Source of the DNA: an uncultured bacterium | Lineage (GTDB): Bacteria; Krumholzibacteriota; Krumholzibacteriia; LZORAL124-64-63 | Assembly (NCBI GenBank): GCA_963727525.1 | Contig: CAVSGO010000006.1 | Span: forward strand, 46,906-110,905 | Reading direction: 5' to 3' | Length of the DNA: 64,000 nucleotides | Shown here: positions 1,977 through 63,814 of the stretch, piece after piece | Position numbering within the stretch: position 1 is the first letter of the stretch | Layout of the letters: the number at the start of each line of letters is the position of its first letter | Notes under the pieces: generated by a model | Told to the model about the DNA's origin: nothing | The model's input: the letters and a program-made list of their open reading frames with translations, nothing else | Database searches by the model: none | Program-made: the position numbers and the translations under genes

Positions 1977-2046
1977 CCCTCATTCCATCGTGACCGCTGC
2001 ACATCCCGACGCGAAATCACGCATCTCCCTCAAAGGGAGGTCCAGG

Positions 2047-5000: not shown

Positions 5001-5118
5001 CACGTCATGGCTCGGGCAGGACGCCCTCGGGCAGTCCGTGGCCTCGGGGGTGTACGTGGCGCGCCTCGAGGCGCCGGGCCGGGTGGTGGCCACGCGCAAG
5101 CTCACGCTCGTACGGTGA
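2047..5118 (+). CDS. Large secreted right-handed beta-helix (pectate-lyase-fold) repeat protein with a C-terminal FlgD-Ig-like/T9SS-like sorting domain (1023 aa)
   Basis: ORF 1990..5118; start moved to ATG 2047 (MDTKLLVLLAALALAAPALA signal peptide) with GGGAGG RBS 8 nt upstream. G/T/N-rich parallel beta-helix repeats (VVHAGTYTG, NTTQGRGGALWIDG...). C-terminus LYPNTPNPFNPFTSIRFDVARPGPMRVAIYDLRGRLVQTL...GVYVARLEAPGRVVATRKLTLVR. Confidence 0.85.
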   Translation: MDTKLLVLLAALALAAPALAVTRVVDLGGGGDFMTIQPAIDASASGDVIVVHAGTYTGSGNTGLNFGGRNLTLQASSGADVTVIDAEQSARLFVFASGETAAARVEGFTLTHGLSGSVGGAVYIQDASPTFVDCYLVENSSDAHGGAVYVQGGEPSFDGCTFVGNTTQGRGGALWIDGAAFVTIDQATITGNTANLSGLSHNGGGLVVSGDSHLQLTRSILWGNRAGDFDDLYVLGTSSAAISCCDVDSGGIGGAGGVDYGAGVVVSDPHFCQPAYCRASPWGDGDYGLAANSPCLPTNNACGERIGAWPQSCGEVVVWTGGAGTTAWENPNNWSTHNLPGPGDNVQITTGDVVLASTAEIGILTQCSESDDSDLTLTITTGGHLLLASGVTDKEVHVATVTSDKTVIENGGEASTGTNNVPQLWHLLGEFDLNNGHVNGALTLDGSGAANSSGNSSLGHDTSVINRGHTPNKVAGAPGLNVVSGTLTVDGTLKNHGDISIAGGAALQLGGTLDNLADGAIALEGSITGNGSLSNRGAMTKTGATASDVVPGVTNLRDAGGAGTIVVSENVWRVGGAFSNSGLVGIADGATLRRTGTITNAADGIIQLAGNIGGGGLLTNQGLVQRSGAGTSTVTGTIANTADLDTGDRGRLLVPTGALNLTTLRSDGIVDVSAGAALTVTSELISGDDARLSGGGSVDVVTASFTNTGRVRPGASPGTLTVVGDYPSTPSTRLFVELGGTAPGTQYDRLVATGTATLGGAMHVALINGFVPSVGDTFTVLTAASVLATFDCVSGLPVAPGLRLVPSVLSDRVLLVATAGDDGDQAPLAVRDDVIVSDSLPSTLSPLANDSDPDGDGLTLVSVIVAATAGTARVSVDGETITYWPPAASTALDSLVYVVTDCAGAVDSATVVLHLANTTATPDPPEPLPDAAYKLYPNTPNPFNPFTSIRFDVARPGPMRVAIYDLRGRLVQTLTDGFHAAGTYATSWLGQDALGQSVASGVYVARLEAPGRVVATRKLTLVR

Positions 5119-13867: not shown

Positions 13868-15619
13868 CTATCGCACCTTCACCACCCGTCCCGTCGCGGT
13901 CTCGACACCCGCGGTGAGCCGGTAAAGGTAGACGCCGCTCGCCATCGTGGTGCCGGCACCATTGCGGCCGTCCCAGACGAGCGTGTGCGAGCCCGCGGCG
14001 CCGTCATTCGCGACGAGTGTGCGCACGCGGCGGCCGGCGAGGTCGAAGATGTCGAGGCGGGCGGCGCCGTCGCGCGGCTGGGCGAAGCGGATCGTCGTGG
14101 TGCCGCTGAAGGGCGTCACCGCGCCGAGGAGGCGCAGGCCGCTCTTGCCGGCCACGTCGGGGGCTGGCGTGAGGGTCAGCAGCTGGCCTACGGCGGCGCC
14201 AAGGTCGGGGCGCGGGCCGATCAACTTCACCGTGTCGAGGGCGGGGATGCCCGTGTCGTGCAGGAGCGCGCGCAGCATGGCTGGCGTGAGGGCCTGGCCG
14301 AGGTTGGCCTTGGCGATGCCCTGCAGGCAGAGGGCGCTGCCGGTGATCATGGGCGATGCTCCGGAGGTGCCGCCAAAATCACTGGTGTAGCGCGTGCGCT
14401 CGGAGCCGGCCGTGTAGAGGTCGCCGTAGCCGGTGGTGACGATCGCCGAGCCCCATGCGTGTACGTCCATGCGGCTGCCATAGTTGGTGAACCACTCGGC
14501 CACGCGGCCCGTCGGTGTGCCGGCGCCCACCATGATGGCGCCCGAGTCGCGAACGTTGCGATCGAAGACGCCGTTCCAGGTGGGAGCGTCGAGGTCCTGG
14601 GACCCATTGGCGCCGGCCTCGACGCAGACCACGCCCTGCGACCAGCAGCCGGTCCAGATGACGTCGTAGTTCACCTGGAGCCACTCCATGGGCGTGGCGT
14701 CGCGGCTGGGCGGGAACATCTGCAGCTCGATGAGCCACACGTCGCCCGGTTGCAACTGGTCGACGGCTTCCTGGAAGTAGCTCGGCAGGGTGGGCCACTC
14801 GGCCCCGGGGATGCCGACGGTGCCCCACGCGACGTCGCCCGCGAAGCCGGTGACGCCGAAGCCGTTGTCCTGGGCGAGAATCTCGCCGAGCACCGCCGTA
14901 CCGTGGTCGCGGTAGCCTTCGATGTCGTTGCTGAAGCCGCCCTGATAGAACTGGCGCAGCGTGTCGAAATCCTCGTGGTCCCACACCCAGTCGAGTTCCA
15001 CGTCGACGAAGTGCATGCCCGCGCCGTGGCCGCCGGCCTGGGCCCAGGCGGCCGGAGCGGCCAGGCCCACGGGCGGATCATAGAGGTAGTCCTGCTGGCC
15101 CGTGAAATCGGGCGTGGGCAGCCACGCCGGCAGGAGGGGCTCCGCCACGGGGGCGATGACGGCGGGCTCGCACACCGGTGCCGGGTGCGCGATCTCCACC
15201 GCAGGCAACGCGTTGAGGGCGTTGATCACGTCGGCCAGGTGGGCGCGGCCGGTGGGAAGCTGCACGTCGTACCAGAGAGAGAGGTCGGGGCCGGTCTGGC
15301 CGCTGGCCAGTTCGCCCGCGTGCTTGCGCGCGCGCAGCACGTCAGGATCGCCGGCGAAGGTGCGACGCATGATGAGAGCATCGGCGAGGATATCGTTCAC
15401 GTTGGAGAGATCACGCCCGGCCGTGTCGGCGAAGCGTCCGCTCGCGAGCGACACGCGGGAGCCCTCTACGAATTTCAGGTGGAGCCAGGCGGGGTCGAAG
15501 CGGTCGAGGCCGGCGGTCGTCCAGGTGACGACGGGGCCGACGGGGCGGGTGGCCGTATCGAGAGCCGCGGCGGGCAAGGCCACGAGCAGGGCGAGGGCGA
15601 GAAGCCAGGGATAGCGCAT
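13868..15619 (-). CDS. Secreted subtilisin-like S8 serine peptidase with a C-terminal FlgD-Ig-like/T9SS-like sorting domain (583 aa)
   Basis: Start trimmed to ATG 15619 (MRYPWLLALALLVALPAAA) with GGAGG RBS. Catalytic-triad contexts DHGTAVLGEI and FGGTSGASPMITG. C-terminus ...FSGTTTIRFAQPRDGAARLDIFDLAGRRVRTLV...SGVYLYRLTAGVETATGRVVKVR. Confidence 0.85.
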   Translation of the reverse strand: MRYPWLLALALLVALPAAALDTATRPVGPVVTWTTAGLDRFDPAWLHLKFVEGSRVSLASGRFADTAGRDLSNVNDILADALIMRRTFAGDPDVLRARKHAGELASGQTGPDLSLWYDVQLPTGRAHLADVINALNALPAVEIAHPAPVCEPAVIAPVAEPLLPAWLPTPDFTGQQDYLYDPPVGLAAPAAWAQAGGHGAGMHFVDVELDWVWDHEDFDTLRQFYQGGFSNDIEGYRDHGTAVLGEILAQDNGFGVTGFAGDVAWGTVGIPGAEWPTLPSYFQEAVDQLQPGDVWLIELQMFPPSRDATPMEWLQVNYDVIWTGCWSQGVVCVEAGANGSQDLDAPTWNGVFDRNVRDSGAIMVGAGTPTGRVAEWFTNYGSRMDVHAWGSAIVTTGYGDLYTAGSERTRYTSDFGGTSGASPMITGSALCLQGIAKANLGQALTPAMLRALLHDTGIPALDTVKLIGPRPDLGAAVGQLLTLTPAPDVAGKSGLRLLGAVTPFSGTTTIRFAQPRDGAARLDIFDLAGRRVRTLVANDGAAGSHTLVWDGRNGAGTTMASGVYLYRLTAGVETATGRVVKVR

Positions 15620-15812
15620 CGTGAGCCTCCGGTTCGGGGGGCGGGGGGCAGGCATCGCGCCGGGATTATACCACGACGCGCGCCAGGTGCGCGAAGGAAA
15701 CGAGACGAGGAAGGCATGCGATACGGTGAACACGGCGGACCTGGCCGGTCGTGGTGCCGGCGTCATCGCCGTCGACCTGCAGGTCACGGCGGTGCGCAGG
15801 ATAGCGAATGGG

Positions 15813-16835
15813 CTACCCGATTTGCCCGCTGGCGTGGAGCTGTGCCGCCACACGGTAGAACGTGAAGGACGAGCACGTGGTGCCGCCGCAGACCTCGTCG
15901 AGCAGTCGGTCCTGCTTCAGGGCCACGAGGATGGCCTTGGCGATGTCGAGCGTGCAATCGTCGTCCCACTTCAGCTTCTTGGTCATGGCGCCATAGACCT
16001 TGGTGTCTGCCTGGAGCTGGTGCTTGATCTCGGCCAGTTCGTCGGCGCGGCGCATGGCCTCCATCATGAGGTGCACGGTGGGAACGGCGATCTCGACGGC
16101 GCTCACGGAATCAGGGTCCGACTCGGCCTGACTGCGGAAATAGAACTCTCCGTCGTCGCGGTGCAGGAAGATCTCGTGGAAAGCCTCCTCGCCCTCGAGT
16201 CCGGCGCAGCGGGCGCGATCGACCTGGCCGCCACGCAGCAGCACCTGGGCGAAGATCTCCTGCGTATCGTTCACCATGGCGAGGAGGCCGGTCTGGCCGG
16301 AATTGATGAGCGTCTGCACGACCGTGGGCATGTCGAAGTAACGGAGCTTGCCCGTCAGCTCGCGCCGTCGCGCCTGGCGCCGCATGTGGGTGATCATGTC
16401 CTGCAGACGCCGCGCGAACATGCGGGTCAGCTCCATGCCGTAGTCCGGAATGTCGCGCGCGAGCTGGTCGAACTGGGCGCGCGTGAGCGACCACACCCGG
16501 GCGTACTCGGGCACGCGACCGTCGGAACGGCGCGGGCTGCCGGTGAACAGGGCCATGTCGCCGATCAGCTCGCCGGGCGTGATGTAGGCCACCGGGACGG
16601 GCTCGGGACTCTCGGCGGTCGAACGTACGATCTCGATGGCGCCGTCGAGCAGCAGGTGCACGCAATCCGACGCTTCGCGGGTACGGAACAGGTACTCGCC
16701 CCGCTGGTACTCCTGGATCTGTCCCGCCGCGGCCGTTTCGCGGACCATGGCCTCGGACAGCATCTCGAACAGTTCGGTATTGCGAAGGGCATCAATGATT
16801 TCCTGGAGTTCGCAGGTCACGGTCTTCATCGCCAT
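15813..16835 (-). CDS. Cyclic-nucleotide-binding domain protein fused to a DUF4388 domain (probable start at the second ATG, 16829)
   Basis: cNMP-binding fold (ELFEMLSEAMVRETAAAGQIQEYQRGEYLFRTREASDCVHLLLDGAIEIVR...GELIGDMALF) followed by TVVQTLINSGQTGLLAMVNDTQEIFAQVLLRGGQV (DUF4388-like). A GAGGAG RBS sits 7 nt before the second ATG. Confidence 0.8.
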   Translation of the reverse strand: MAMKTVTCELQEIIDALRNTELFEMLSEAMVRETAAAGQIQEYQRGEYLFRTREASDCVHLLLDGAIEIVRSTAESPEPVPVAYITPGELIGDMALFTGSPRRSDGRVPEYARVWSLTRAQFDQLARDIPDYGMELTRMFARRLQDMITHMRRQARRRELTGKLRYFDMPTVVQTLINSGQTGLLAMVNDTQEIFAQVLLRGGQVDRARCAGLEGEEAFHEIFLHRDDGEFYFRSQAESDPDSVSAVEIAVPTVHLMMEAMRRADELAEIKHQLQADTKVYGAMTKKLKWDDDCTLDIAKAILVALKQDRLLDEVCGGTTCSSFTFYRVAAQLHASGQIG

Positions 16836-24115: not shown

Positions 24116-27100
24116 TCACCGCACCAACATCATCTTGTGCAACATCGTCTCGCCCGTCGCTTCGAGGCGGCAGAAGTAGAGACCGCTCGCCGTCTCGCGC
24201 CCGGATCCGTCCCGTCCATCCCAGCGCACCTCGTGCCGGCCCGCCGGCAACACGTCGGCGACCAGCCTGCGCACCCGTACGCCGCGCACGTCGTAGATTT
24301 CGAGCTGTATGGGGCCGGGTGCGGCGAGGTCGAACGCGATCACCGTCTGGGGGTTGAAGGGATTCGGGGCGTTGCCCACGACCCGGGTGACGGTGGGGAG
24401 CGTCGCCGGCGCCGCCGTGGCGGTGGCGCTGCCGACCAGCAGGTTCAGTCCCCACGTCTGGAACGCGCCGAGCGCGCCGAAGGCGGTGTCGGCCACGAAG
24501 ATGGTCCAGTCGCCCTGAGGGTCCGCGCCCAGGAAGTCATCGAGTGATCCGGGACCGTCGACCACGAGGTTGGCGGGCCAGTTGCCCACGATGTCGTCGT
24601 TGATGCTGCCCGAGTGGTCGTGCAGCGTGACCACCGTACCCTGCGGATTCGTGAGCGTGACGACGAGCTGGCCGATCGAGGGATGCGTGATGGCGATGTC
24701 CACCGAAACGCCGAGCAGCGCGCCGGTGTCGCCGACGTTGATGTTGCTGGTCATGCCGGCGGGGTTGTTGTCGGGAATCGGCAGGTTCACGCTGGCTGTC
24801 TCGTGCACGGCGACCACGGGGAAGAGCGTGAAGTCCACGCCGGAGAGCGTCTGTCCGTCAGCCAGCGCCACGGTGCGAGTCGCTGGCGCGTAGCCGTCGC
24901 GGCTCACGGTCATCGCGTAGTTGCTCGCCCACAGACCGGCGATCGTGTAGGCCCCATCGGAACCGGTGTTGGCGCTGTGGAAGGGGCCCGCCGTGACGGT
25001 GATGCCGGACGCGTCACCGCCGTCCTCCAGGCTCACCACCCCGGAGATCGACGAGGTGCCGGGCGACTCGGGCGCCGTCAGGTAGGCCAGCGCGTTTTCA
25101 GTGAGCAAGCGGGCCTGATCCGGGTTCAAGTAGCCGAAGTCGAAGGGGAGGAAGACGATCTGTCCCGCGTCCGGCCCGGAGTTGTCGTCATAGAGGAGCA
25201 CGCCGGCGGAATCGATGCTGAACACGGAATGCATGATCACGAGCGCGTCGGCCGTCGGCAGTGCGAGGTCGCACGCTCCCACGTCGAAACCGGCATCCAC
25301 GCCGGTTTCGATGTCGTCGGGAAGGCGGTGCGGCCGGTTCAGGAACAGGTGGTGATCCTCATCCGGATTGGGCACGAGCAACGTGCCCGAATCACCCCAC
25401 CAGTCCGCGGTGTGCAGGACCGTGCGGGTGAAGGCGTCGCTGAACGGAGGACTCTGGTAGGCGCGGTACACGATATCGCCGCCCTCGATCATCAGACGGC
25501 CACCGCTCTGTACCCAGGCCAGCAGGCGGTCGCGCAACTCCGGATTCTGCAGGGGCTGTTGATTGTTGCCACACGAGATCACCACGGCATCGTGTCCGGG
25601 CAGACTGTTCTGGCCGACATCGGCCGCGTCCACCTGATCGACGACATAACCGGCATCGATCAGCCACTGCGCGATGTCCGCGGCCGAGGTGGCGGGTTCG
25701 ACGGGAACACCGCGGGGGGAGCCCGATGGCTCCTGCTCTCGCGCCGCGTAGTTGAAGAGGTTGTCGATCACGAGCACGCGGGCCAGGGCGGCGACCACGG
25801 TAAAGGTGAATGGGCCGGCGGTGGTCGTGTTGGGGATGGCGGCCACATCCTGTGCCGCCAGGCGGTACGTCACGGTGTCGCCCACCTGCAGCGATCCGGC
25901 CGCGAGCGGGAAGTCCACACCGTAGCCATCACCGTCGGGCGCCAGCGCGACGGGCCCTTGCTGCGCGCCACCGTTCACTGCGAACGTGAGCGTGACGTCG
26001 GCGATGCCGATGTTGTCGGATGCCAGCGCGAAGACCCGCGGCGGCCACGTTGCCAGGGTCTGGTCGATGAGCGGCGCGTGGAAGAGTTGCGGCGCGATGG
26101 TATCGACCCCGATACCGAAGCCGTACACGCCGGTGGGCGCGTTCAGCGGTGCCCGGATGGTGATGCCCTGTGCGTCGCTCGCCTCGAGGTAGTAGTCGAC
26201 GATGCCACCCGCCTGACCAGGGATCTCGCCCGTGTAGGCGTCGCCGCCCGCGGGGGTCAGTGGCGCCGTTTGCCAGGGGCCGCCATCCACGCGCCACACC
26301 AGGGAGAGCGTGGCGCCGGCCAGACCCTGGCGGTCGGTGATCGTCGCCGTGACGACGTATGGTCCCACAGTGTCCTCGGTGTCCACGAGCGGCGTGTGCG
26401 CGATGGAGGGGCCCCAGTAGGTGACGGCCGCGTAGGCGTCGACGATGCCCCAGCCGTAGTCGTTGTCGGGGTTGTCCGTGCGGTCGGCGGTGGCCTTGAG
26501 CGCGTCGCGCACCTGGGCCGGTGTGAGCGAGGGCACCCGCTCCAGAATGAGGGCGGCCACGCCCGCCACGAGCGGTGTCGCGAAACTGGTGCCGTCCACG
26601 GCAGAGTAGCCCGTCGCGCCGTCCCAGTAGGCCACGATGTTACTCACGCCCTGGGCGCTGAGGTCGGGCTTGATGCGGCCGTCGTAGGTGGGACCGGGCG
26701 AGCTGAACGAGGCGATGTTGCCGTCGAGGTCCACCGCCGCGAGGGCCAGCACGTTGTGGCCATCGGCAGGGGGCAGGATGTGGGGGAAGTCGGAATTCTG
26801 CCGCTCGTTGCCGGCGCTATTGAAGACGCAGACGCCCAGATCGAACGCCATGTCGGCCGCGATGGTGGTGACGGCCGTGTCGCCGTCGAGGTCGCTGAAG
26901 TCGTACCAGTAGTAGTAGCCCAGACTGCTGGTGACGACGTCCACGCCGAGCGACTCCTCCCACTCGATGCCCGCGACCCAGTTGTCCTCCTCGATGGGCG
27001 TCTCGCTCTCGATGTCCTCGGTCTTGGCGAGGATCGCCGAGGCGCCATAGGCCGTGCCGATCAGCTCGCCGTTCTTGAAGCCCATGACGAGTGAGAGCGT

Positions 27101-27886
27101 CTCGGTGCCGTGCCGGGCCTGCTGGAAGTAGTCGCCGGGTTCCTGCGCCACGATGGTGTCGTTGTCGACGAAGTCGTACTGGGCGATGACGTCGATGTTC
27201 TGCAACGCCATGTGGGTGCGGTTGAAGCCGGAGTCGAGCATACCCACGATCACGCCGTGTCCGCTGAGGCCCAGCTCGTGGGCGGGCGGCACGTCGATCT
27301 GCTCGAGGGTGGCCAGACTGGAGCCATAGCTGAGTTGCCAGCGATCTCCGGACGCGGCCCTGGCCGCATCGTTGCGGGCGGCAGCCCGGGCCTCGTCGGC
27401 TGGCGACACGGCCAGCTCGGGGCGGACGAACTTCGCCACCAGGTCCACCCTGGTCACGAAGGGCAAGCGCGCGATGGCGGCGATCTGGTCCGGCCTGGCG
27501 TTCACGCTGATGGCATCGAGCCAGCGCGACGTCCGGCGTAGGGCCGCGCCGGTGGCCGTGACGGCGCGCACGTAGGCGGCGTCCACGGGCAGGTCGTGGG
27601 TGTCCACGAGGCGGGACCCCGCCGGTTTCACCCTGGCGCGACGGGCCAGCGCGCGCGCCGTCAGGCGCTGCTCCTCGCGGTCGAGGGCGGCCGGCAGGTC
27701 GGATGCGCTCACGCCCTTGTCGGTGAACGAGACCCAGATGGCCCAGGTGCCGTCGGCCTGACGCAGGGGCGCTGCGGGATCGGTGAGCGCGTGGGCGAGG
27801 CGCGGCGAAACTTCGGCGCGCGCCGCGCTCGGCACGACCAGGACCACGGTCACGGCGAGGATCAGCGTCATCAGGAAACGGCGCAT
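24116..27886 (-). CDS. Large secreted subtilisin-like S8 peptidase with a proprotein-convertase-type P domain and a C-terminal FlgD-Ig-like/T9SS-like sorting domain (1256 aa)
   Basis: AAGGAG RBS. Signal peptide MRRFLMTLILAVTVVLVVPSAARA. S8 contexts HGTETLSLV and GTSFATPLVAGVAALI. P-domain-like QLVVTLTNPQGTVVTLHDH. C-terminus NAPNPFNPQTVIAFDLAAPGPIQLEIYDVRGVRVRRL...SGLYFCRLEATGETMLHKMMLVR. Confidence 0.9.
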   Translation of the reverse strand: MRRFLMTLILAVTVVLVVPSAARAEVSPRLAHALTDPAAPLRQADGTWAIWVSFTDKGVSASDLPAALDREEQRLTARALARRARVKPAGSRLVDTHDLPVDAAYVRAVTATGAALRRTSRWLDAISVNARPDQIAAIARLPFVTRVDLVAKFVRPELAVSPADEARAAARNDAARAASGDRWQLSYGSSLATLEQIDVPPAHELGLSGHGVIVGMLDSGFNRTHMALQNIDVIAQYDFVDNDTIVAQEPGDYFQQARHGTETLSLVMGFKNGELIGTAYGASAILAKTEDIESETPIEEDNWVAGIEWEESLGVDVVTSSLGYYYWYDFSDLDGDTAVTTIAADMAFDLGVCVFNSAGNERQNSDFPHILPPADGHNVLALAAVDLDGNIASFSSPGPTYDGRIKPDLSAQGVSNIVAYWDGATGYSAVDGTSFATPLVAGVAALILERVPSLTPAQVRDALKATADRTDNPDNDYGWGIVDAYAAVTYWGPSIAHTPLVDTEDTVGPYVVTATITDRQGLAGATLSLVWRVDGGPWQTAPLTPAGGDAYTGEIPGQAGGIVDYYLEASDAQGITIRAPLNAPTGVYGFGIGVDTIAPQLFHAPLIDQTLATWPPRVFALASDNIGIADVTLTFAVNGGAQQGPVALAPDGDGYGVDFPLAAGSLQVGDTVTYRLAAQDVAAIPNTTTAGPFTFTVVAALARVLVIDNLFNYAAREQEPSGSPRGVPVEPATSAADIAQWLIDAGYVVDQVDAADVGQNSLPGHDAVVISCGNNQQPLQNPELRDRLLAWVQSGGRLMIEGGDIVYRAYQSPPFSDAFTRTVLHTADWWGDSGTLLVPNPDEDHHLFLNRPHRLPDDIETGVDAGFDVGACDLALPTADALVIMHSVFSIDSAGVLLYDDNSGPDAGQIVFLPFDFGYLNPDQARLLTENALAYLTAPESPGTSSISGVVSLEDGGDASGITVTAGPFHSANTGSDGAYTIAGLWASNYAMTVSRDGYAPATRTVALADGQTLSGVDFTLFPVVAVHETASVNLPIPDNNPAGMTSNINVGDTGALLGVSVDIAITHPSIGQLVVTLTNPQGTVVTLHDHSGSINDDIVGNWPANLVVDGPGSLDDFLGADPQGDWTIFVADTAFGALGAFQTWGLNLLVGSATATAAPATLPTVTRVVGNAPNPFNPQTVIAFDLAAPGPIQLEIYDVRGVRVRRLVADVLPAGRHEVRWDGRDGSGRETASGLYFCRLEATGETMLHKMMLVR

Positions 27887-33343: not shown

Positions 33344-33889
33344 TCAGATGCTCCAGTTGACGAGCGGCAGCACCGGGAGCTTCGACTTGCTCTGGATGAT
33401 GTTCAGCACCCCGATCTGCAACCCGTGCATTTTCTGGGCGACGTTCACCACGCCGACCTGGACGCCGTTGAAATCGTCGGACACGTTCACGAGACCCCAC
33501 TGCAGGCCCTCGGCCCGCCGGTTCACGTTGACGGCGCCTGACTGCACACCCTGCAGGAAGCCGTCGGTCCGGCTGTAGAACCCGGCCTGCCAGCCGCTGA
33601 AGTCGCCGTCGGTGAGTCCCACGAGAGCCCACTGCACGCCGACCTGGTCGCCGTGCGCGACGGTGATCAGGCCCCAGTCGAGTCCCTTGACGTCGCGGTT
33701 CACGCCATAGAGCAGGGCGAGACGCAGTGCGCTCACCGACGTCTCCTCGCCGGTGGTCTGGACCGGGCTGAACAGCGCGAGATTGAGCGGGCTGCGGGCC
33801 TCGTCGGCCGCGGCGGCCGTGGTCGGTGCGACCACGGCCGGCGTGGCCAGGGCGAGAACGAGGAACGCGTGGGCGAGCGCGTGTCTCAT
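33344..33889 (-). CDS. Secreted hypothetical protein with degenerate G-x-Q-x-G-x-x-N-V repeats
   Basis: Signal peptide MRHALAHAFLVLALATPAVVAP. Repeats GVQWALVGL, GLQWGLVNV, GVQVGVVNV, GLQIGVLNI. Confidence 0.6.
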   Translation of the reverse strand: MRHALAHAFLVLALATPAVVAPTTAAAADEARSPLNLALFSPVQTTGEETSVSALRLALLYGVNRDVKGLDWGLITVAHGDQVGVQWALVGLTDGDFSGWQAGFYSRTDGFLQGVQSGAVNVNRRAEGLQWGLVNVSDDFNGVQVGVVNVAQKMHGLQIGVLNIIQSKSKLPVLPLVNWSI

Positions 33890-33911: not shown

Positions 33912-34703
33912 CTATAGCGCGTCGCGCGTGACCGTGGCGTTCTCCACGATGACGTCGTACGCGTAACCCGCGCCGAAATCCTTGTTCGTGGCGACGGTGC
34001 CCTTGATCAGGACCACGTCGCCGACCTTGGCGTCGCCGTCGGTGGTGACGGTGAGGTCGCCGTCGGCGCCGTTGCTGCTGCCGTCCTGGATGTGCAGCCA
34101 GTTCTTGCCCATCACGTTGCCGGTGCGCTTGACCACCTGGCCGCGCACGAGCACCTGCTTGCCGGCGAGCTTGGCGGCATCGGCGTGGATCTCCGCCACG
34201 GTCACGCCACCGGCAGCCTTGGCCACGCTGCCGGCCGCCACGGTGACGTCGGCCTGATTCAGACCGGAGTGCGGATTGCTGCCACCGCTCATCGCGCCGC
34301 CGCCCATGGAGGCCGGCATGTTCGATGCGCCGCCCTTCTGGATGGCGTTGACGAAGTAGATCTCCGGGAAAGTGCGGTCGAGCGTCTTGCTGGCGAAGTC
34401 CTTCATCACCATGCCGGCGGGCATGGTCACCTCATCGCCCACGGCCACCTCGGTGGTGGGGCCGGCCGCCCAGACGTCGCCATCGGCGGTCTTCACGTGG
34501 ACGTAGGTATAGCCGCCGGAATCCATCGTCTCGGTGACCTCGCCGCTGATGCTGGCCGGGGTCGCGGACGGAGGCGCGGCCTGCTGGCCCTGCGCGGGGG
34601 TGTTCGCGCTGGCCTGCTGCTGGGCGCTGGTGTCGCTCTTGCCCCCGCAGCCGGCGAGCAGGGCGATCAAGGCGATGGCGGCAAGTAACGTACGGACCAT
34701 CAT
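33912..34703 (-). CDS. Lipoprotein of unknown function (263 aa)
   Basis: Start trimmed to ATG 34703 (GGGAGG RBS 6 nt upstream). MMVRTLLAAIALIALLAGC lipobox, Q/A/P-rich linker, then a Gly-rich soluble domain. Confidence 0.7.
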   Translation of the reverse strand: MMVRTLLAAIALIALLAGCGGKSDTSAQQQASANTPAQGQQAAPPSATPASISGEVTETMDSGGYTYVHVKTADGDVWAAGPTTEVAVGDEVTMPAGMVMKDFASKTLDRTFPEIYFVNAIQKGGASNMPASMGGGAMSGGSNPHSGLNQADVTVAAGSVAKAAGGVTVAEIHADAAKLAGKQVLVRGQVVKRTGNVMGKNWLHIQDGSSNGADGDLTVTTDGDAKVGDVVLIKGTVATNKDFGAGYAYDVIVENATVTRDAL

Positions 34704-34771
34704 CGTGAGCCTCCCAAGGGTTTCGAGATTGCCTAGCATGGCCACAAGATAGACCGTACGGGTGGTATTTC

Positions 34772-34954
34772 AACCCACCTAATTCATGCTGTCGCGTAGC
34801 GAGGCGAGTGGAACGGTCTCTGTGAGCGGGATCTCGCAGGGTTTGTGAGGGAGCCGTACCCGCTGGGGTACGGTGACCGCAGCAAACCCGAGAAAGCCCG
34901 CTCACAGAGACCCGTGACGCCGCCGCAGTAGCGATAGCATGAATTAGGTGGGTT
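34772..34954. repeat. ~183-bp imperfect inverted repeat (long hairpin) in the divergent intergenic region between the lipoprotein gene and the CDF transporter gene
   Basis: Arms pair symmetrically about nt 34863/34864: AACCCACCTAATTCATGCT (34772-34790) with AGCATGAATTAGGTGGGTT (34936-34954); GGTCTCTGTGAGCGGG (34815-34830) with CCCGCTCACAGAGACC (34898-34913); apical hairpin CCGTACCC-gctg-GGGTACGG (34854-34873). Intervening segments pair only partly. No other copy in the window. Confidence 0.7.
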
Positions 34955-35068
34955 CAAGTCGGGCGAGAACCCCCAGGTGCCCAGTTTCGCGCTTGTCGTG
35001 GCGGGACCGATGCCGTTTGCTAGAGTCTCCCGGTAGCCGCGACGGCGCCGGCCACGAGGGAGTGCGCC

Positions 35069-36487
35069 TTGTCCAGTCCGGTCGACCCGGCCGCCGTGCA
35101 TGCCAAGACCCGCGCCGCGACCATGTCCGTCATGGCGGCGGTCCTGCTCACCGTCTTGAAACTCACCGTCGGACTCGCCACCGGCAGTCTCGGTCTCCTG
35201 GCCGAGGCGGCGCACTCGGGCCTCGATCTCGTGGCGGCCATCGTCACCTACTTCGCCGTGCGCATCTCGGACCGGCCCGCCGACCACGTTCACCAGTACG
35301 GCCACGGCAAGGTGGAGAACCTGTCGGCGCTGTTCGAGACGGTCCTGCTGCTCGTGACCTGTGTGTGGATCGTCTTCGAGGCGGTGCAGCGCCTGGCGTA
35401 CAAGCACGCCCACGTGGAGGCTACGGTGTGGGCCTTCGTCGTGATCATGACGTCGATCGTGGTGGACATCAATCGCTCGCGTATGCTCTACCGCGCTGCT
35501 CGCGAGCACCATAGCCAGGCCCTGGAAGCCGACGCGCTCCATTTCTCCACCGACATCTGGAGTTCTGCCGTCGTCCTGGTGGGGTTGGCCCTGGTGTGGC
35601 TGAGCGGCCGCCTCGGACCCGACTGGCTCTGGCTCGCCAAGGCCGACGCCGTGGCGGCGCTGGGCGTGGCGTGCATCGTCGTCGTGATCAGCATTCGACT
35701 CGGCCAGCGCGCGGTGAACGTGCTGCTCGATGCCGCGCCGCACGGGCTGGTCGCTCGTATCGAGGCCGAGGTGGTGCAAGTGCCGGGCGTGCGCGAGGTG
35801 CGGGACACGCGTGTGCGTCAGAGCGGGGCCGCCACCTTCGTCGATCTCACCGTCGAGGTGGAGCGCAGCGTCGCCCTCGAGGAAGCGCACCGTATCGCCA
35901 CCGAGGTCCAGGAGGCCGTGGCGCAACTCGTGCCGCGCAGCGACGTGGTGGTGCACGTCGATCCGGTGCGGCCGCGCGGCGAGATCCTTCCCGACACCGT
36001 GAGCGCCATCGCCACGCGGATGGGGCTGCGTACCCACGACGTGGTGCTCCACGAGATCCGCGGCAGGTTCTACCTGGACATGCACGTCGACGTGCCGGCC
36101 GATCTCTCCCTCGCCGATGCGCACGTGGAGGTGTCCCGCCTGGAGGAGGCGATCCGGGCCGAGCTGCCGCATGGCACCACCATCAACAGCCACATCGAGC
36201 CGTACCACTCCACCACCCCGCGCGTGGCGGCGCTGGGCGCCGACACCGAGGCGCTCCTGCGTGACCGCATCCTGGCCGCAATGTCGCGTGTACCGGGCTT
36301 GCGTGGCTGCCACGCCTGCCATCTCCGCGCCGGGCTCACCGGCTACGACGTCGTGCTCGATTGCCACGCTCCCGCCGAGCTGTCGGTGGATGAGGCCCAT
36401 CGCCTCACCGAGATCGCGGAGTCGCGCTTGCGGGAAGAGATCCCGGGCATCGGGCAGGTCCTCATCCACGTCGAACCCGCCTCCTGA
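35069..36487 (+). CDS. Cation diffusion facilitator (CDF) family divalent-metal efflux transporter with an extended/duplicated C-terminal cytoplasmic domain (472 aa)
   Basis: TTG 35069 with GAGGGA RBS 8 nt upstream. LKLTVGLATGSLGLLAEAAHSGLDLVAAIVTYFAVRISDRPAD..HQYGHGKVENLSALFE (CDF TM signature with HxxxD metal site). Two successive C-terminal regulatory-domain-like segments (VREVRDTRVRQSG...VHVDP ; CHACHLRAGLTGYDVVLDCHA...IHVEP). Confidence 0.85.
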   Translation: MSSPVDPAAVHAKTRAATMSVMAAVLLTVLKLTVGLATGSLGLLAEAAHSGLDLVAAIVTYFAVRISDRPADHVHQYGHGKVENLSALFETVLLLVTCVWIVFEAVQRLAYKHAHVEATVWAFVVIMTSIVVDINRSRMLYRAAREHHSQALEADALHFSTDIWSSAVVLVGLALVWLSGRLGPDWLWLAKADAVAALGVACIVVVISIRLGQRAVNVLLDAAPHGLVARIEAEVVQVPGVREVRDTRVRQSGAATFVDLTVEVERSVALEEAHRIATEVQEAVAQLVPRSDVVVHVDPVRPRGEILPDTVSAIATRMGLRTHDVVLHEIRGRFYLDMHVDVPADLSLADAHVEVSRLEEAIRAELPHGTTINSHIEPYHSTTPRVAALGADTEALLRDRILAAMSRVPGLRGCHACHLRAGLTGYDVVLDCHAPAELSVDEAHRLTEIAESRLREEIPGIGQVLIHVEPAS

Positions 36488-36492
36488 CGCGG

Positions 36493-36936
36493 TCAGGGCT
36501 TCGGTGTGGCGGTCGTGCCCAGGCACAGCGGTGACGCGCCCGCCGAGCGATCGATGAGATCGACGATCGGTGTGCTGCCCATGGCCTCCTCGATGTGGGC
36601 CATGGCGTCGTCGAGCTTGCGGTGCAGGGGGCAGAGCTGCGAACCATGCGCGGGGATGCCCAGTGGGCAGCCATCGAGCCGAGGGATGGGATCGATGGCG
36701 TTGATCACGTCCAGCGGCGTGATCGTCAGCGGGTCGCGCGCGAGCGTGAAGCCGCCGTGCAGTCCACGCTGCGAGTTCACGAGTTTCGCGCGCACGAGGC
36801 TTTGCATCACCTTGGCGAGGTAGCCCGCCGGGATCTTCGTGGCGTCCGCGATCGCCCTGGTGGTCTGCGGGGCGTCGCCACGGCTGGCGATCCATACGAT
36901 CGTGCGGAGGGCGTACTCGGCAGTCCGGGAAATCAA
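36493..36936 (-). CDS. Rrf2-family transcriptional regulator (IscR/NsrR-like, three conserved Cys) (147 aa)
   Basis: Probable TTG start at 36936 with GGAGG 7 nt upstream (ORF extends to 37008). ISRTAEYALRTIVWIA...TKIPAGYLAKVMQSLVRAKLVNSQRGLHGGFTLAR (wHTH). Cys residues in DGCPLGIPAHGSQLCP.... Confidence 0.8.
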   Translation of the reverse strand: MISRTAEYALRTIVWIASRGDAPQTTRAIADATKIPAGYLAKVMQSLVRAKLVNSQRGLHGGFTLARDPLTITPLDVINAIDPIPRLDGCPLGIPAHGSQLCPLHRKLDDAMAHIEEAMGSTPIVDLIDRSAGASPLCLGTTATPKP

Positions 36937-37046
36937 CGCGCAGCCTCCGTCTTTCTGCTTACTGGACCTTGACATCCACAATGTGCCCGCTATCGTTGCC
37001 CCTGTCAAGAGGACAAAAGCATCCAGATATCGAGTGAGGCTTCCAG

Positions 37047-38132
37047 ATGGAGGCTGTGGTCATGCAAGGCACCGAGAACACGTCGGATACGATTCAAGCC
37101 ACCAGCCGGCCGCGTCGGCGTTCCCGGCCGCGCCGCGCCTACGGACCGCGCCTGGCCGTGCAACTCGTCACCCTCGGCATCTGCGTCGCGATGGGCGTCC
37201 AGTTCGGCACCTGGGTCGGTCGTCTCGAGGCTGGCTCCATCGCGGGTGTCCGGCCGCCAGGCGTGGAGGGTTTCCTGCCCATCTCGGGACTCATCAGCCT
37301 GCGCCAACTGATCGCAACGGGCGAGTTCTCGATGATCCATCCCGCGGCGCTGGTGATCCTCGCTCTCGCCTGCCTGAGCGCACTGCTGCTCAAGAAGTCG
37401 TTCTGCTCCTGGCTATGCCCCGTTGGCACGGTGTCGGAGTACGCGGCGCGTCTCGCGCATCGGGTGACGGGCTGGCGGGTGAAGCTGCCGCGCTGGCTCG
37501 ACTACCCGCTGATGGGCATCAAGTACCTGCTTCTGATCTTCTTCCTCCACGCGATCTTCTTCCGGATGGCGACGGCCGACGTGACGGCGTTCCTGCTCTC
37601 GCCGTACAACAAGGTCGCCGACATCAAGATGTTCTACTTCTTCGCCCATATCTCCGCGCTGGCGATCAAGGTCATCTTGGCACTCGTGGCGCTCAGCCTG
37701 GTGGTGCCGTATTTCTGGTGCCGCTACCTCTGCCCGTACGGCGCGCTGCTCGGGGCACTGTCCTGGTTCTCGCCCCTGAAGATCCGCCGCTCGCCCCTCG
37801 ACTGCACGAGCTGCGGCCGCTGCGCTGCCGTCTGTCCCGCGTTCTTGCCCGTCGACCTCAAGCTCGTGATCAACTCGCCCGAGTGCACCGGTTGCATGGA
37901 ATGCGCGGCGCATTGCCCGGTGCCCACCGCGCTGGCCTTCGGTCCACCGCCGCGCTGGCATCGCAAGGTGAAGCCGGCGGCGGTGGCCGTGCTCGTAATC
38001 GTGCTCTTCTACGGCGGCATCGGCGTGGCAAAGCTCGCCGGTCGCTGGCATTCGCGGGTCGATCCCGTGGAGTTGCAGCAGCGCGTGCAGCACGGACTGA
38101 ACGGGCCCGACTACGGGCATTTCGGGCGCTAG
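37047..38132 (+). CDS. Membrane polyferredoxin-like 4Fe-4S protein (NapH/MauN/NosR-C-like)
   Basis: TM helices with paired CxxxCP motifs (FCSWLCPVG, CRYLCPYG) plus two ferredoxin CxxCxxCxxxCP clusters (CTSCGRCAAVCP, CTGCMECAAHCP). Alternative start ATG 37062 (GGAGG RBS). Confidence 0.75.
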   Translation: MEAVVMQGTENTSDTIQATSRPRRRSRPRRAYGPRLAVQLVTLGICVAMGVQFGTWVGRLEAGSIAGVRPPGVEGFLPISGLISLRQLIATGEFSMIHPAALVILALACLSALLLKKSFCSWLCPVGTVSEYAARLAHRVTGWRVKLPRWLDYPLMGIKYLLLIFFLHAIFFRMATADVTAFLLSPYNKVADIKMFYFFAHISALAIKVILALVALSLVVPYFWCRYLCPYGALLGALSWFSPLKIRRSPLDCTSCGRCAAVCPAFLPVDLKLVINSPECTGCMECAAHCPVPTALAFGPPPRWHRKVKPAAVAVLVIVLFYGGIGVAKLAGRWHSRVDPVELQQRVQHGLNGPDYGHFGR

Positions 38133-38197: not shown

Positions 38198-38306
38198 AAG
38201 CCTGTCGGCGACTGAAACCTCGCCTGGACGCGGTTTCGCGACTAGCTTGAACGGCAATCGTGCCACCCCGCCGATCGTCGATGACCATTCCGCCGAGCGA
38301 GAAGCC

Positions 38307-39359
38307 ATGCCGCATCTCATCGCCGTATCCACAGCGTCGCCCCCGCACCGGGTCGACCAGAGCGAAGCGCGGGAATTCGCGAGCAACCTCTTTCGCGAGC
38401 ACCTCTCGCACCTCGACCGGTTGCTGCCGGTGTTCACCAATGCGGGCATCGAGACGCGCTACTTCGCGATGCCGCCCGCCTGGTTTCGCGATCCGCCGCC
38501 CTTCGCCGAGAAGAACGCCATCTTCGTGGAGCAGGCCACAGCGCTCAGTGCGCGCGCCGTACGCCAGCTCCTCGAGACGACGGAGCTGAAACCCGGCGAC
38601 ATCGACATGATCATCTTCATCAACACCACGGGTCTGGCAACGCCGTCGATAGACGCGCGCCTGATCAACGTGCTCGGTCTGCGCACCGACGTGCGCCGCA
38701 CGCCGATCTGGGGCCTCGGCTGCGCGGGGGGCGCCGCGGGCCTGGCGCACGCCTATCACCATGCACTCGGCCATCCGCGCGAGCGCATCCTCGTGGTGGC
38801 CTGCGAGCTGTGCGGCCTCACCTTCCTGGCCGACGACTACACGAAGAGCAACCTCGTGGCCTGCGCCCTCTTCGCGGACGGCGCCGCTGCCGCACTCATA
38901 TGTGGCGACGATGTCGGCGCGCAGGGGCTGGAGTTGCTGGGCACCCAGTCGCGCTTCTATCCCGACTCGCTCGAGGTCATGGGCTGGAACATCGTCGCCC
39001 GCGGCATGCAGGTGGTGTTCGATCGCCGCATCCCCGACATCGTGACGCAGCACGCGGCCGACGAGCTGGACACCTTCCTCGCGCACCACGGCCTCGCGCG
39101 CGCCGGCGTGGCGGAGTACCTCTACCATCCCGGCGGTATCAAGGTGCTCGAGGCCTATGTCAACGCGTACGGTGTGGAGCCGGGCGCCCTGCGCTACTCG
39201 CGCGAGGTGCTGCGCGATTTCGGCAACATGTCGTCGGTCACGGTGCTCTACGTCCTGGCCCGCTACCTCAGCGAGCACCGTCCTGGCCGCGGCGTGCATG
39301 GCGTGATCTCGGCGCTGGGGCCGGGCTTCTCCTCGGAATCGTTGCTGGTGCGGCTGTAG
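38307..39359 (+). CDS. Type III polyketide synthase (chalcone/stilbene synthase family) (350 aa)
   Basis: ATG 38307 (MPHLIAVSTASPPHRV). Active-site Cys context GLGCAGGAAGLAHA; C-terminal FGNMSSVTVLYVL and GPGFSSESLLVRL. Confidence 0.85.
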   Translation: MPHLIAVSTASPPHRVDQSEAREFASNLFREHLSHLDRLLPVFTNAGIETRYFAMPPAWFRDPPPFAEKNAIFVEQATALSARAVRQLLETTELKPGDIDMIIFINTTGLATPSIDARLINVLGLRTDVRRTPIWGLGCAGGAAGLAHAYHHALGHPRERILVVACELCGLTFLADDYTKSNLVACALFADGAAAALICGDDVGAQGLELLGTQSRFYPDSLEVMGWNIVARGMQVVFDRRIPDIVTQHAADELDTFLAHHGLARAGVAEYLYHPGGIKVLEAYVNAYGVEPGALRYSREVLRDFGNMSSVTVLYVLARYLSEHRPGRGVHGVISALGPGFSSESLLVRL

Positions 39360-61192: not shown

Positions 61193-63814
61193 GTGAACTT
61201 GAGAGCTTCACTGCGTGCGCTGGCCGTGTTTATTCTCGCCGCGACACTGTCCAGCATCACCTCTCTCTCCTCGGCGTACGCCGACAACGACACGTGCTTC
61301 ATGTGCCACGACGATGCGTCGCTCAAGAGCGAGTCGGGCAAGTCCGTCGGCGTTCTGGCGAAGTTGTTCGATGCGAGTGTTCACGCCGGCCTGGAGTGCA
61401 CCGACTGCCACACGCAGGACGCGAACTTCGATGACGTGCCGCATTTCTCGCGTTACCAGCCGGTCAATTGCGCGATGTGCCACGAGGACGCGGCGCACAG
61501 CTTCGGATTGAATTTTCACGCCAAGGCGGCTACCCAGGGCAACACCAATGCTCCGAACTGCAAGGACTGCCACGGCGTCGACGGCAATCCCCACGCGATG
61601 CGCGCCCTTACCGCGCGCACGGCGGAGTCGGCGTGCCGACGGTGCCACGCTTCGGAAGCCAAGATCTATGACACCGGTGTGCATGCGATCGCCGACAAGG
61701 GTGGTCGCGAGAGGGCCGGATGCGTGACCTGCCACCAGTCGCACGGCCCGGGTCTGCCGCCCTCGTCCGGCGCCGTGAACGGCCTCTGCGAGAAGTGCCA
61801 CAAGGGCGCCATGGAGGACGTCCAGCGCGGTGGCCACGTGGCCATTGGCGAGGGACTCAACCAGACGCTGAACTGCGCTTCGTGCCACGACGTGCATGGC
61901 ACGCACAAGCCGCACCTGTCCGCGCGCGTGGCCCAGGCGTGCGTCACCTGCCACCAGAAGGAACGCGATGCCTTCATAGGGTCGGTACACGAGACGCTCA
62001 TCGCCGGCGGCACGATGCATTGCCTTTCCTGTCACAGCACGCACAAGGACGAGGCGGCGGCGCGGCAGTACGACGCGGGCTGCGGCAGTTGCCACGGCGA
62101 CGTGGAAAAGATCTACCGCGGTAGCGTGCACCGTTTCGGCCGCTTGCGCGGCGATGACGGTGCCGCGACGTGTGCCAACTGTCACCACGGACACCATATC
62201 CTCCCGGCGACCGATCCGGCGTCGCCGACGAATCGCTTGAACATTCCCAGCACCTGCGGCGAATGCCACACCGATGAGAGCATCGTCACCAAGGACTTCG
62301 TGCGTCTGCCGATCACGCTGCCAAACTACATGAACTCGGTGCACGGCAAGGGGCTCGTGGCGGGCAAACCCACCGCGACCTGCACCGACTGCCATGGCAC
62401 GCACGACCTGCAGACCGCCCAGGATCCGAATTCGAAGATCAATCGGTTCCACATCGCGCAGACGTGCAGCAAGTGCCACGCGGATATCGCGGAGAAATAC
62501 GAGAACTCGATCCACGGCAAGGCTGTGCAGGTGGGTATCGAGGATTCGCCGACCTGCATCGATTGCCACGACGAGCACCTGATCAAGGACGTCAAGGACC
62601 CCACCGCGCGGCAGAATCCAGAGAACATCGCGCGCGAGCTGTGCGGTGACTGCCACAACAACTCGGACATGGTGTCGAAGTACGGCATCGCCGCGGGCGT
62701 CGTGAGCAGCTATCTCGACAGCTACCACGGGTGGGCGATCAGCCGCGGGGGAACCCTCGTGGCCACCTGCGTCGATTGCCACACGACCCACGAGATCCGG
62801 GCCCCGCAGGATCCCGAGTCGTCGGTCTTCGTGGACAACGTGACAAAAACGTGCGGCAAGTGCCACGCGAATGCCAACGAGACGTTTTCCCGCTCTTACA
62901 CGCACGCGGGCGCGCTAGCGGCGCGCGGGCCGCACGGCTGGGCGAAGCTGATCTACCTCATCCTGATCGCCGTGGTGCTTGGCGGCATGGCGCTGCACAA
63001 CTTCGTGATCGCGCGCTTCGAGATCATCAAGCACCGCGTGCGCCGGCGCCGGGAGGCGTACGTCGTGCGCTGGCAGCGCGTGGAGCGCGTGCAGCACCTG
63101 ATCCTGCTCACGTCGTTCTTCGGCCTGGCCATCACCGGCTTCGCGCTGCGCATGCACGACGCCTGGTGGGTCAAGGTGATCGGCCTCGGTGGCTCCGAGT
63201 CGGTGCGCGCCAACCTGCACCGCGCGCTGGCCGTGATCCTCACCGGAGCAGCGTTCTTCCACCTGTGGTGGATCATCGCCACCCGGCGCGGTCGTTACGC
63301 CGTCAAGGAGATGGCGCCCGGCGCGCACGACATCGTGCACTTCATCAAGAACATGGGCTTCCACCTGGGCTTCACGTCCGAGCGACCGAAGTTCCGACGG
63401 TTCGATTACACGCAGAAGGCGGAGTACTGGGCGGTCGTCTGGGGCACCATGGTCATGGCTCTCACCGGGCTCGTGCTGTGGTTCCCCGTGCTGGTGACCA
63501 CCTGGACGCCCGCCTGGGTGGTGCGCGTGGCCGAGGTGGTGCACTACTACGAGGCCATCCTCGCGGTCTCGGCCATCATCATCTGGCACTTCTTCTACGT
63601 CATCTTCATGCCATCGGAGTACCCGGTGAGCACCGTGTGGCTCGACGGCCGCATGCCGGAGCACGACTGGAAGGAATTCCACGCGGCCGAGCACGAGACC
63701 GACGGCGACGCAGTGGTGCAGCAGCCCGGGCCCAGCACCGATCTGCCCGGCATCGCGGTGTTCGTGCCCAAGGCGTTGCGCAGCAAGCGTCCTCCCGACC
63801 CGAAACACGGGTGA
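61193..63814 (+). CDS. Fusion of a 19-haem periplasmic c-type cytochrome domain with a C-terminal membrane dihaem cytochrome b (FdnI/HydC-like); CbcL-like inner-membrane quinol:cytochrome oxidoreductase candidate (873 aa)
   Basis: GTG 61193 with GAGAGGGA RBS. Signal peptide. 19 CxxCH motifs (CFMCH ... CGKCH). Then four TM helices with conserved Arg/His (VVRWQRVERVQHLILLTSFFGLAITGFALRMHD..., HRALAVILTGAAFFHLWW..., EYWAVVWGTMVMALTGLVLWF..., HYYEAILAVSAIIIWHFFYVIF), as in cytochrome b subunits of formate dehydrogenase / NiFe hydrogenase. Confidence 0.85.
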   Translation: MNLRASLRALAVFILAATLSSITSLSSAYADNDTCFMCHDDASLKSESGKSVGVLAKLFDASVHAGLECTDCHTQDANFDDVPHFSRYQPVNCAMCHEDAAHSFGLNFHAKAATQGNTNAPNCKDCHGVDGNPHAMRALTARTAESACRRCHASEAKIYDTGVHAIADKGGRERAGCVTCHQSHGPGLPPSSGAVNGLCEKCHKGAMEDVQRGGHVAIGEGLNQTLNCASCHDVHGTHKPHLSARVAQACVTCHQKERDAFIGSVHETLIAGGTMHCLSCHSTHKDEAAARQYDAGCGSCHGDVEKIYRGSVHRFGRLRGDDGAATCANCHHGHHILPATDPASPTNRLNIPSTCGECHTDESIVTKDFVRLPITLPNYMNSVHGKGLVAGKPTATCTDCHGTHDLQTAQDPNSKINRFHIAQTCSKCHADIAEKYENSIHGKAVQVGIEDSPTCIDCHDEHLIKDVKDPTARQNPENIARELCGDCHNNSDMVSKYGIAAGVVSSYLDSYHGWAISRGGTLVATCVDCHTTHEIRAPQDPESSVFVDNVTKTCGKCHANANETFSRSYTHAGALAARGPHGWAKLIYLILIAVVLGGMALHNFVIARFEIIKHRVRRRREAYVVRWQRVERVQHLILLTSFFGLAITGFALRMHDAWWVKVIGLGGSESVRANLHRALAVILTGAAFFHLWWIIATRRGRYAVKEMAPGAHDIVHFIKNMGFHLGFTSERPKFRRFDYTQKAEYWAVVWGTMVMALTGLVLWFPVLVTTWTPAWVVRVAEVVHYYEAILAVSAIIIWHFFYVIFMPSEYPVSTVWLDGRMPEHDWKEFHAAEHETDGDAVVQQPGPSTDLPGIAVFVPKALRSKRPPDPKHG

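Follow-up and report, generated by a model that had tools for sequence, protein, structure and literature searches.

The palindrome analyzed in this work lies between two divergently transcribed genes in a stretch of DNA of 64 kb, which was studied over its whole length and is referred to here as the window. To its left, the minus strand carries an open reading frame for a lipoprotein of 263 amino acids (positions 33912 to 34703 of the window), with a signal peptide bearing the lipobox LLAGC and with the ribosome-binding site GGGAGG, both read from the sequence. This protein matched no Pfam family above the cut-off. The lipoprotein family is large, with 2815 matches at E ≤ 1e-5, and has no Pfam domain; a few sources name the homologues "OB-fold nucleic acid binding" or "DNA-binding protein". 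The gene just downstream of the lipoprotein gene (33344 to 33889), which encodes 181 amino acids, could be assigned to no family. To the right of the palindrome, the plus strand carries a CDF transporter gene (35069 to 36487; 472 amino acids; PF01545, E 4.9e-42, and PF16916, E 4.3e-45), which starts with TTG and has the ribosome-binding site GAGGGAG at 35056 to 35062. The open reading frames and the Pfam matches agree with the preliminary description of this DNA, which had placed the palindrome between divergent genes for a lipoprotein and a CDF transporter. From the end of the element it is 99 nt to the CDF ribosome-binding site, a distance put there at about 115 nt, and 112 nt to the TTG start codon. 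The CDF transporter is long, and its cytoplasmic ZT_dimer domain was matched in three stretches, which suggests that the C-terminal metal-binding domain may be duplicated. The architecture of this protein is shared by thousands of homologues, some of which are labelled Anaerolineae/Chloroflexota by their sources.

Farther out lie genes for an ABC-F ATPase, for the 181-aa protein mentioned above, for an Rrf2 regulator and for a NapH-like membrane protein of the 4Fe-4S type; the Rrf2 gene converges with the CDF gene and diverges from the NapH-like one. The divergent pair formed by the Rrf2-family regulator and the NapH-like polyferredoxin membrane protein occupies 36493 to 38132 and is followed by a type III polyketide synthase gene (38247 to 39359). 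Over the whole window there were no tRNA genes, no notable tandem repeat and no Rfam family at its gathering score. Elsewhere in the window, several large secreted proteins (1990 to 5118, 13868 to 15853 and 24116 to 27886), including two subtilases and one Ig/cadherin-like protein, end in a domain of the FlgD_ig type, possibly a tag for C-terminal sorting and perhaps a clue to the lineage of the host. In a protein of 873 amino acids (61193 to 63814), numerous motifs of multihaem cytochrome c (c7, c3, paired CXXCH and MtrC-like) are combined with a C-terminal membrane domain of the cytochrome b561 type; it appears to be a fusion for extracellular or transmembrane electron transfer. Sequences identical to the CDF and lipoprotein products occur in the source record and, beyond it, in a single Logan run (ERR11594398) only; the source organism is rare in public data.

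The feature itself is an imperfect DNA palindrome of 189 bp (34769 to 34957) whose centre falls at 34863/34864, as delimited by a repeat search, and it is the longest and top-ranking inverted repeat in the whole 64-kb window. A palindrome of about 183 bp, from 34772 to 34954 and centred on 34863, with nested perfect arms of 19, 16 and 8 bp, had been described previously; the repeat search recovered all three perfect blocks and extended the borders as given above. The outer arms (34769 to 34795 and 34931 to 34957) are 27 nt long and 93% complementary, and the perfect block of 19 nt corresponds to 34772 to 34790. The left inner arm (34815 to 34861), which holds the 16-nt block and the central 8-nt block, pairs with the right inner arm (34866 to 34912) over 47 nt with 77% complementarity. 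The inner arms are separated by the four nucleotides GCTG (34862 to 34865), which the repeat search and the fold identify as symmetry centre and apical loop. The 16-nt block, GGTCTCTGTGAGCGGG, pairs 34815 to 34830 with 34897 to 34912 and was confined to these two opposite arms in a search of the window, and the 8-nt block consists of CCGTACCC (34854 to 34861) and GGGTACGG (34866 to 34873). Between outer and inner arms, the left linker (34796 to 34814) is partially complementary, with indels, to the right linker (34913 to 34930), as seen in the arm alignment and, for the left linker, also in the folds.

Within the outer arms, a left terminal inverted repeat of 22 nt, CCCACCTAATTCATGCTGTCGC (34774 to 34795), matches the reverse complement of the right one, GCGATAGCATGAATTAGGTGGG (34931 to 34952), at 21 of 22 positions, according to the repeat search and the arm alignment. 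The element is bracketed by two copies of the pentamer TTCAA (34769 to 34773 and 34953 to 34957), read from the sequence, which constitute a putative target-site duplication and enclose a core of 179 bp (34774 to 34952). TTCAA differs from its own reverse complement, TTGAA, at the central base alone, and this near self-complementarity means that a target duplication is only weakly discriminated from the outermost part of a palindrome with one mismatch. The sequence immediately to the left, GGGTGG-TAT-TTCAA (34760 to 34773), resembles the right end of the element, GGTGGG-TTCAA (34947 to 34957), and its GGGTGG can pair with the initial 6 nt of the left terminal repeat, which gives a small hairpin across the boundary. 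This end-like flank could reflect an insertion beside an end-like sequence, a longer duplication that has since decayed, or chance.

The GC content is 59.8% in the element and 54.5% in the terminal repeat, compared with 66.9% in the window and 71% in the right intergenic flank. A gapped alignment of one arm against the other gave 75 identical columns out of 97; the 22 columns that differ include 5 with indels, and many of the differences are transversions and indels. The best-conserved part of the palindrome is found at its extreme ends. The mismatches between the arms cluster marginally (permutation p 0.04-0.09), and the blockwise conservation of the arms is only a marginal sign of selection. 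An assembly artefact was rejected as the origin of the palindrome, since artefactual inverted joins have perfect arms and here more than a fifth of the alignment columns differ, indels included. Two Logan contigs from the same organism (L122 and L121, run ERR11594398) agree with the window at 100% identity but leave a gap between 34821, where the sequence stops, and 34986, where it resumes; the 164 nt missing there include the palindrome core and the right arm. A repeat-induced break of the assembly graph was rejected as the cause, since the break points do not match the borders of the element plus k-1, and a coverage drop over the strong hairpin, or a generally low coverage, is as likely. We take the gap for an effect of coverage or of the hairpin and not for a sign of multiple copies.

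Folding calculations confirmed that the sequence can form the very long extended hairpin announced in the preliminary description, and that it does so far beyond shuffled sequences and on both strands. As RNA, the plus strand from 34760 to 34965 folds with -139.1 kcal/mol, compared with -74.6 ± 4.3 kcal/mol for the shuffles (z = -15.2; none of 200 was as good), and the minus strand of the same region with -122.3 kcal/mol (z = -12.4), which leaves the plus-strand fold 17 kcal/mol more stable. As single-stranded DNA, the element (34769 to 34957) folds with -73 kcal/mol (z = -13.3). The structure is one continuous rod-like stem with small internal loops and without a junction, in which G-U pairs number 4 in the plus-strand fold and 2 in the minus-strand fold. 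The lack of a strand bias in G-U pairs, together with arm differences in the form of transversions and indels, indicates that the symmetry belongs to the DNA and not to one transcript.

A consensus scan of 34600 to 35150 returned a lone match of the sigma-70 type, where shuffled sequences led to an expectation of 0.0. This promoter-like site lies on the minus strand, upstream of the lipoprotein gene (34746 to 34773), and consists of TTGAAA (34773 to 34768), a spacing of 16 nt and TATCTT, which ends at 34746; it is suitably placed to drive the lipoprotein gene. The left TTCAA forms most of the -35-like hexamer TTGAAA, and the site abuts and overlaps the left edge of the element. No CDF promoter was called by the same scan; a candidate extended -10 sequence for this gene, TGcTAGAGT on the plus strand (35018 to 35026), was recognized by eye only and has no -35 match. 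If both promoters were real, the palindrome would lie between back-to-back promoters and would be contained in neither mRNA.

The comparison with related loci points to an element that is present, among the loci compared, in this lineage only. For the CDF protein about 8000 homologues were found, the nearest being 74-76%, 68% and 66% identical. The upstream regions of the closest of them (135 to 210 nt) contain neither similarity to the element nor a comparable hairpin, and their neighbour genes differ from those in the window. The closest lipoprotein homologue is 72% identical and is encoded on Logan contig L129, which retains the stretch CACAAGATAGACCGTAyGGGT, holding the -10-like TATCTT, at about 383-410, together with TTGTAT, a hexamer of the -35 type, which is spaced by 16 nt as in the window; the rest of the spacer cannot be aligned. 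The similarity to this contig stops at window position 34773, where we propose that the element has its left edge, and the aligned position ends in the same CAA, which favours, as a weak point, the reading of TTCAA as a duplicated host target sequence. Beyond it, the relative has a spacer of 198 nt followed by a different divergent gene, and no palindrome. The right flank of the element is unrelated to this contig (alignment score 19 versus 16.6 ± 2.5 for shuffled sequences, 99 of 500 of which were as good) because the neighbouring gene differs. Conservation of the pairing in orthologous intergenic regions, the lack of which the preliminary description had named as refuting its reading, is absent near both the CDF and the lipoprotein homologues, at loci that are not fully syntenic. 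The relatives compared are distant, and a clean empty site is not reconstructable from them.

Searches for further copies gave a uniform picture. The earlier statement that the window holds a single copy was borne out by nhmmer with its filters off and by blastn with a word size of 7, neither of which detected any further copy in the 64 kb, however degenerate. At a density of 20-50 copies per genome of several Mb, less than one further copy would be expected in 64 kb, and a single copy in a stretch of this length is thus uninformative. Multiple copies in metagenomes had been proposed as an indication of a MITE; in JGI metagenome contigs no match was found either with the 22-nt terminus or with the two-arm gapped pattern CTAATTCATGC-N132-162-GCATGAATTAG. 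Three patterns had no match in IMG/VR, and the whole element and a 35-nt terminus had none in PLSDB. In INPHARED, only two chance matches of 31 nt (E 0.7) were obtained. In 596 Gb of genome contigs, the 15-mer CCACCTAATTCATGC occurred at 120 loci, all of them single chance matches that do not extend, because a 15-mer is too short for a collection of this size. The concatenated open frames of the element matched nothing at E ≤ 0.001 among 5.8 billion protein clusters. No transposase was present among ten large proteins from elsewhere in the window, and no parent insertion sequence or transposase was identified.

Although no second copy was found, the anatomy of the element leads us to consider a MITE-like palindromic insertion, or the relic of one, from a family not described before and without a known second copy, as the best explanation, which we put forward tentatively and at somewhat less than an even chance. 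The MITEs of prokaryotes are shorter than 500 bp, have terminal inverted repeats of about 4-30 bp and flanking direct repeats, are AT-richer than the genome, intergenic and non-coding, and form stable stem-loops (PMC10969869). The element measures 179-189 bp and has no coding capacity, its open frames being short or part of spurious ORFs that overlap real genes. Its terminal repeats span 22 nt with 21 matches, or 27 nt with 25 matches (93%) if TTCAA is included, and TTCAA stands at both edges, with the reservation that the pentamer is nearly self-complementary. It is intergenic, poorer in GC than the window (59.8% compared with 66.9%) and folds into a stable stem-loop (z of -12 to -15). Thus the suggestion of a MITE- or REP-like relic in the preliminary description gains from the terminal repeats, the direct repeat, the low GC content and the lack of coding capacity, and loses from the lack of a second copy. 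The full-length similarity of the arms, which is untypical of a simple derivative of an insertion sequence by internal deletion, also speaks against the MITE reading, as does the fact that no further copy was found in any collection searched, multiplicity being the defining feature of a mobile repeat family.

We hypothesize that the element is a non-autonomous, non-coding copy, or relic, of a palindromic mobile element of the MITE or "foldback" type, with a core of 179 bp (34774 to 34952), terminal inverted repeats of 22 nt and a 5-bp duplication of TTCAA. Recognition of the terminal repeats by a transposase acting in trans would have led to insertion into the divergent promoter spacer, where a staggered cut would have duplicated TTCAA and kept the -35-like hexamer of the lipoprotein gene intact; TTCAA as a duplicated target would in this way explain how the lipoprotein promoter survived the insertion. 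Since then, the element would have been largely neutral DNA, with arms that now differ at about 23% of positions. Transposition, the transposase, the history of insertion and neutrality are all features that we infer.

The position of the palindrome, 112 nt upstream of the CDF start codon, is also compatible with an RNA acting in cis as a leader, or with a small RNA, which would be part of the CDF transcript or be made on its own and would control expression, either as a long double-stranded substrate of RNase III or by responding to metal. Riboswitches that target CDF genes are known, as in the case of czcD/NiCo (PMC9389577), and MITE-derived hairpins in mRNA, such as those of the Correia elements, are known RNase III substrates (PMC10969869). 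In addition, the greater stability of the plus-strand fold, by 17 kcal/mol, and the absence of a convincing CDF promoter downstream of the element in the consensus scan would suit a leader. Nevertheless, an Rfam scan of 34300 to 35400 found no riboswitch or bacterial RNA family at E ≤ 10, czcD/NiCo included, which agrees with the earlier remark that the element does not resemble the czcD/NiCo motif by eye. The only Rfam matches over the element were to microRNA-precursor models, far below gathering (25 bits versus 100 for mir-734), and these merely reflect the long hairpin. The czcD (NiCo) riboswitch resembles the present case in its position upstream of a CDF transporter gene; it is built as a four-helix junction, however, whereas the element is a rod-like hairpin with no covariance-model match, no expression platform and no conservation in homologous loci. 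This single rod has no junction, conserved internal loops, terminator or anti-RBS pairing, the CDF ribosome-binding site lying about 100 nt beyond the hairpin, and neither strand is enriched in G-U pairs. Furthermore, the element is absent upstream of all closest CDF homologues, and the candidate extended -10 at 35018 to 35026, recognized by eye, would start transcription downstream of the hairpin. For these reasons the metal-responsive leader proposed in the preliminary description is unsupported, as is the structured non-coding RNA proposed with it, for which there was no Rfam match and of which both strands fold about equally into a rod; we regard a leader or small RNA as rather improbable. 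An intrinsic terminator or attenuator was rejected, since no terminator-like site occurs between 34600 and 35150 and the hairpin is followed by GTCGGGCGAG and not by a T-run. A retron msr-msd RNA was rejected as well, since the six nearest proteins contain no reverse transcriptase domain.

Two explanations at the level of DNA have to be weighed against the MITE-like insertion. A local, non-mobile palindrome could have arisen by an inverted duplication, for example through template switching in replication, and have decayed since then without any function. The single copy in all collections searched, the similarity of the arms over their full length (75 of 97 columns) and the marginal clustering of mismatches (p 0.04-0.09), which is compatible with near-uniform decay, are in line with such an origin. 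It is more difficult to reconcile with termini whose AT content clearly exceeds that of the intergenic DNA around them, with conservation that is best at the extremities, where transposase-binding sites would be expected, and with a perfect 5-bp direct repeat that brackets the element. Moreover, an initially perfect long palindrome would be expected to be unstable in bacteria, where hairpin cleavage of the SbcCD type acts against such sequences. We therefore hold a local origin to be unlikely. The second explanation assigns the palindrome a role in the divergent promoters themselves, as a cruciform-prone or protein-bound element, for example with two distant operator copies located in the AT-rich termini, that would couple or insulate both of them. 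It would account for the fact that the element abuts the -35-like hexamer of the lipoprotein promoter, for termini that constitute identical 19-mers 147 bp apart and for the very stable DNA fold. There is, however, no adjacent regulator gene, the Rrf2 gene nearby converging with the CDF gene; the termini are not dyads themselves, the element is absent from related loci in spite of the conservation of the lipoprotein promoter stretch, and none of the results speaks for protein binding. A role of this kind appears very improbable to us. Slightly more credible, and still of low probability, is a lineage-specific regulatory device of the lipoprotein/CDF promoter pair, which would be no selfish relic and would act as a long double-stranded leader whose processing by an RNase III-type enzyme determines the amount of CDF mRNA, or as a supercoiling-sensitive cruciform through which both promoters are coupled; its origin might be a domesticated MITE. 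Two other identities were dropped on anatomy and context: an integron attC site and an operator of the LacI type, the latter with TGTGAGCGG half-sites 66 nt apart.

Returning to the MITE-like insertion, its closest analogues are the ERIC/IRU elements of Enterobacteriaceae (about 127 bp) and the Correia elements of Neisseria, which are palindromic over their whole length. Like them, the element is short, non-coding and intergenic near promoters, carries terminal inverted repeats and forms one long imperfect hairpin on either strand. Unlike them, it occurs once in 64 kb, in an uncultured high-GC host, and neither an IHF site nor an internal promoter was identified in it; its sequence resembles nothing in the collections searched. 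The target-site duplication of Correia elements is TA, compared with the 5 bp of the putative TTCAA duplication. REP and REPIN sequences, which are mobilized by RAYT, share with the element the nature of an extragenic palindrome with hairpins in DNA and RNA. REP units have a length of about 20-40 nt and the REPIN doublets one of roughly 100 nt; both are G+C-rich, and a genome holds tens to hundreds of copies of them. The element, at 189 bp, does not fit them in size, has ends that are AT-rich and occurs once in the window. No RAYT gene was present among the window proteins covered by a non-exhaustive scan. Correia elements are also located upstream of efflux genes, and they can carry promoter hexamers or be cut by RNase III (PMC10969869).

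For the CDF gene, these results remove a riboswitch candidate and provide evidence against a conserved RNA metal sensor at this position, and they raise no new question about metal sensing. If the element is indeed a MITE-like insertion, it would be the first sighting of an undescribed family of small mobile elements in a poorly sampled, uncultured lineage of high GC content. It would then be of use mainly in annotation and as a marker of insertion polymorphism, and it would illustrate how insertions can be tolerated between divergent promoters.
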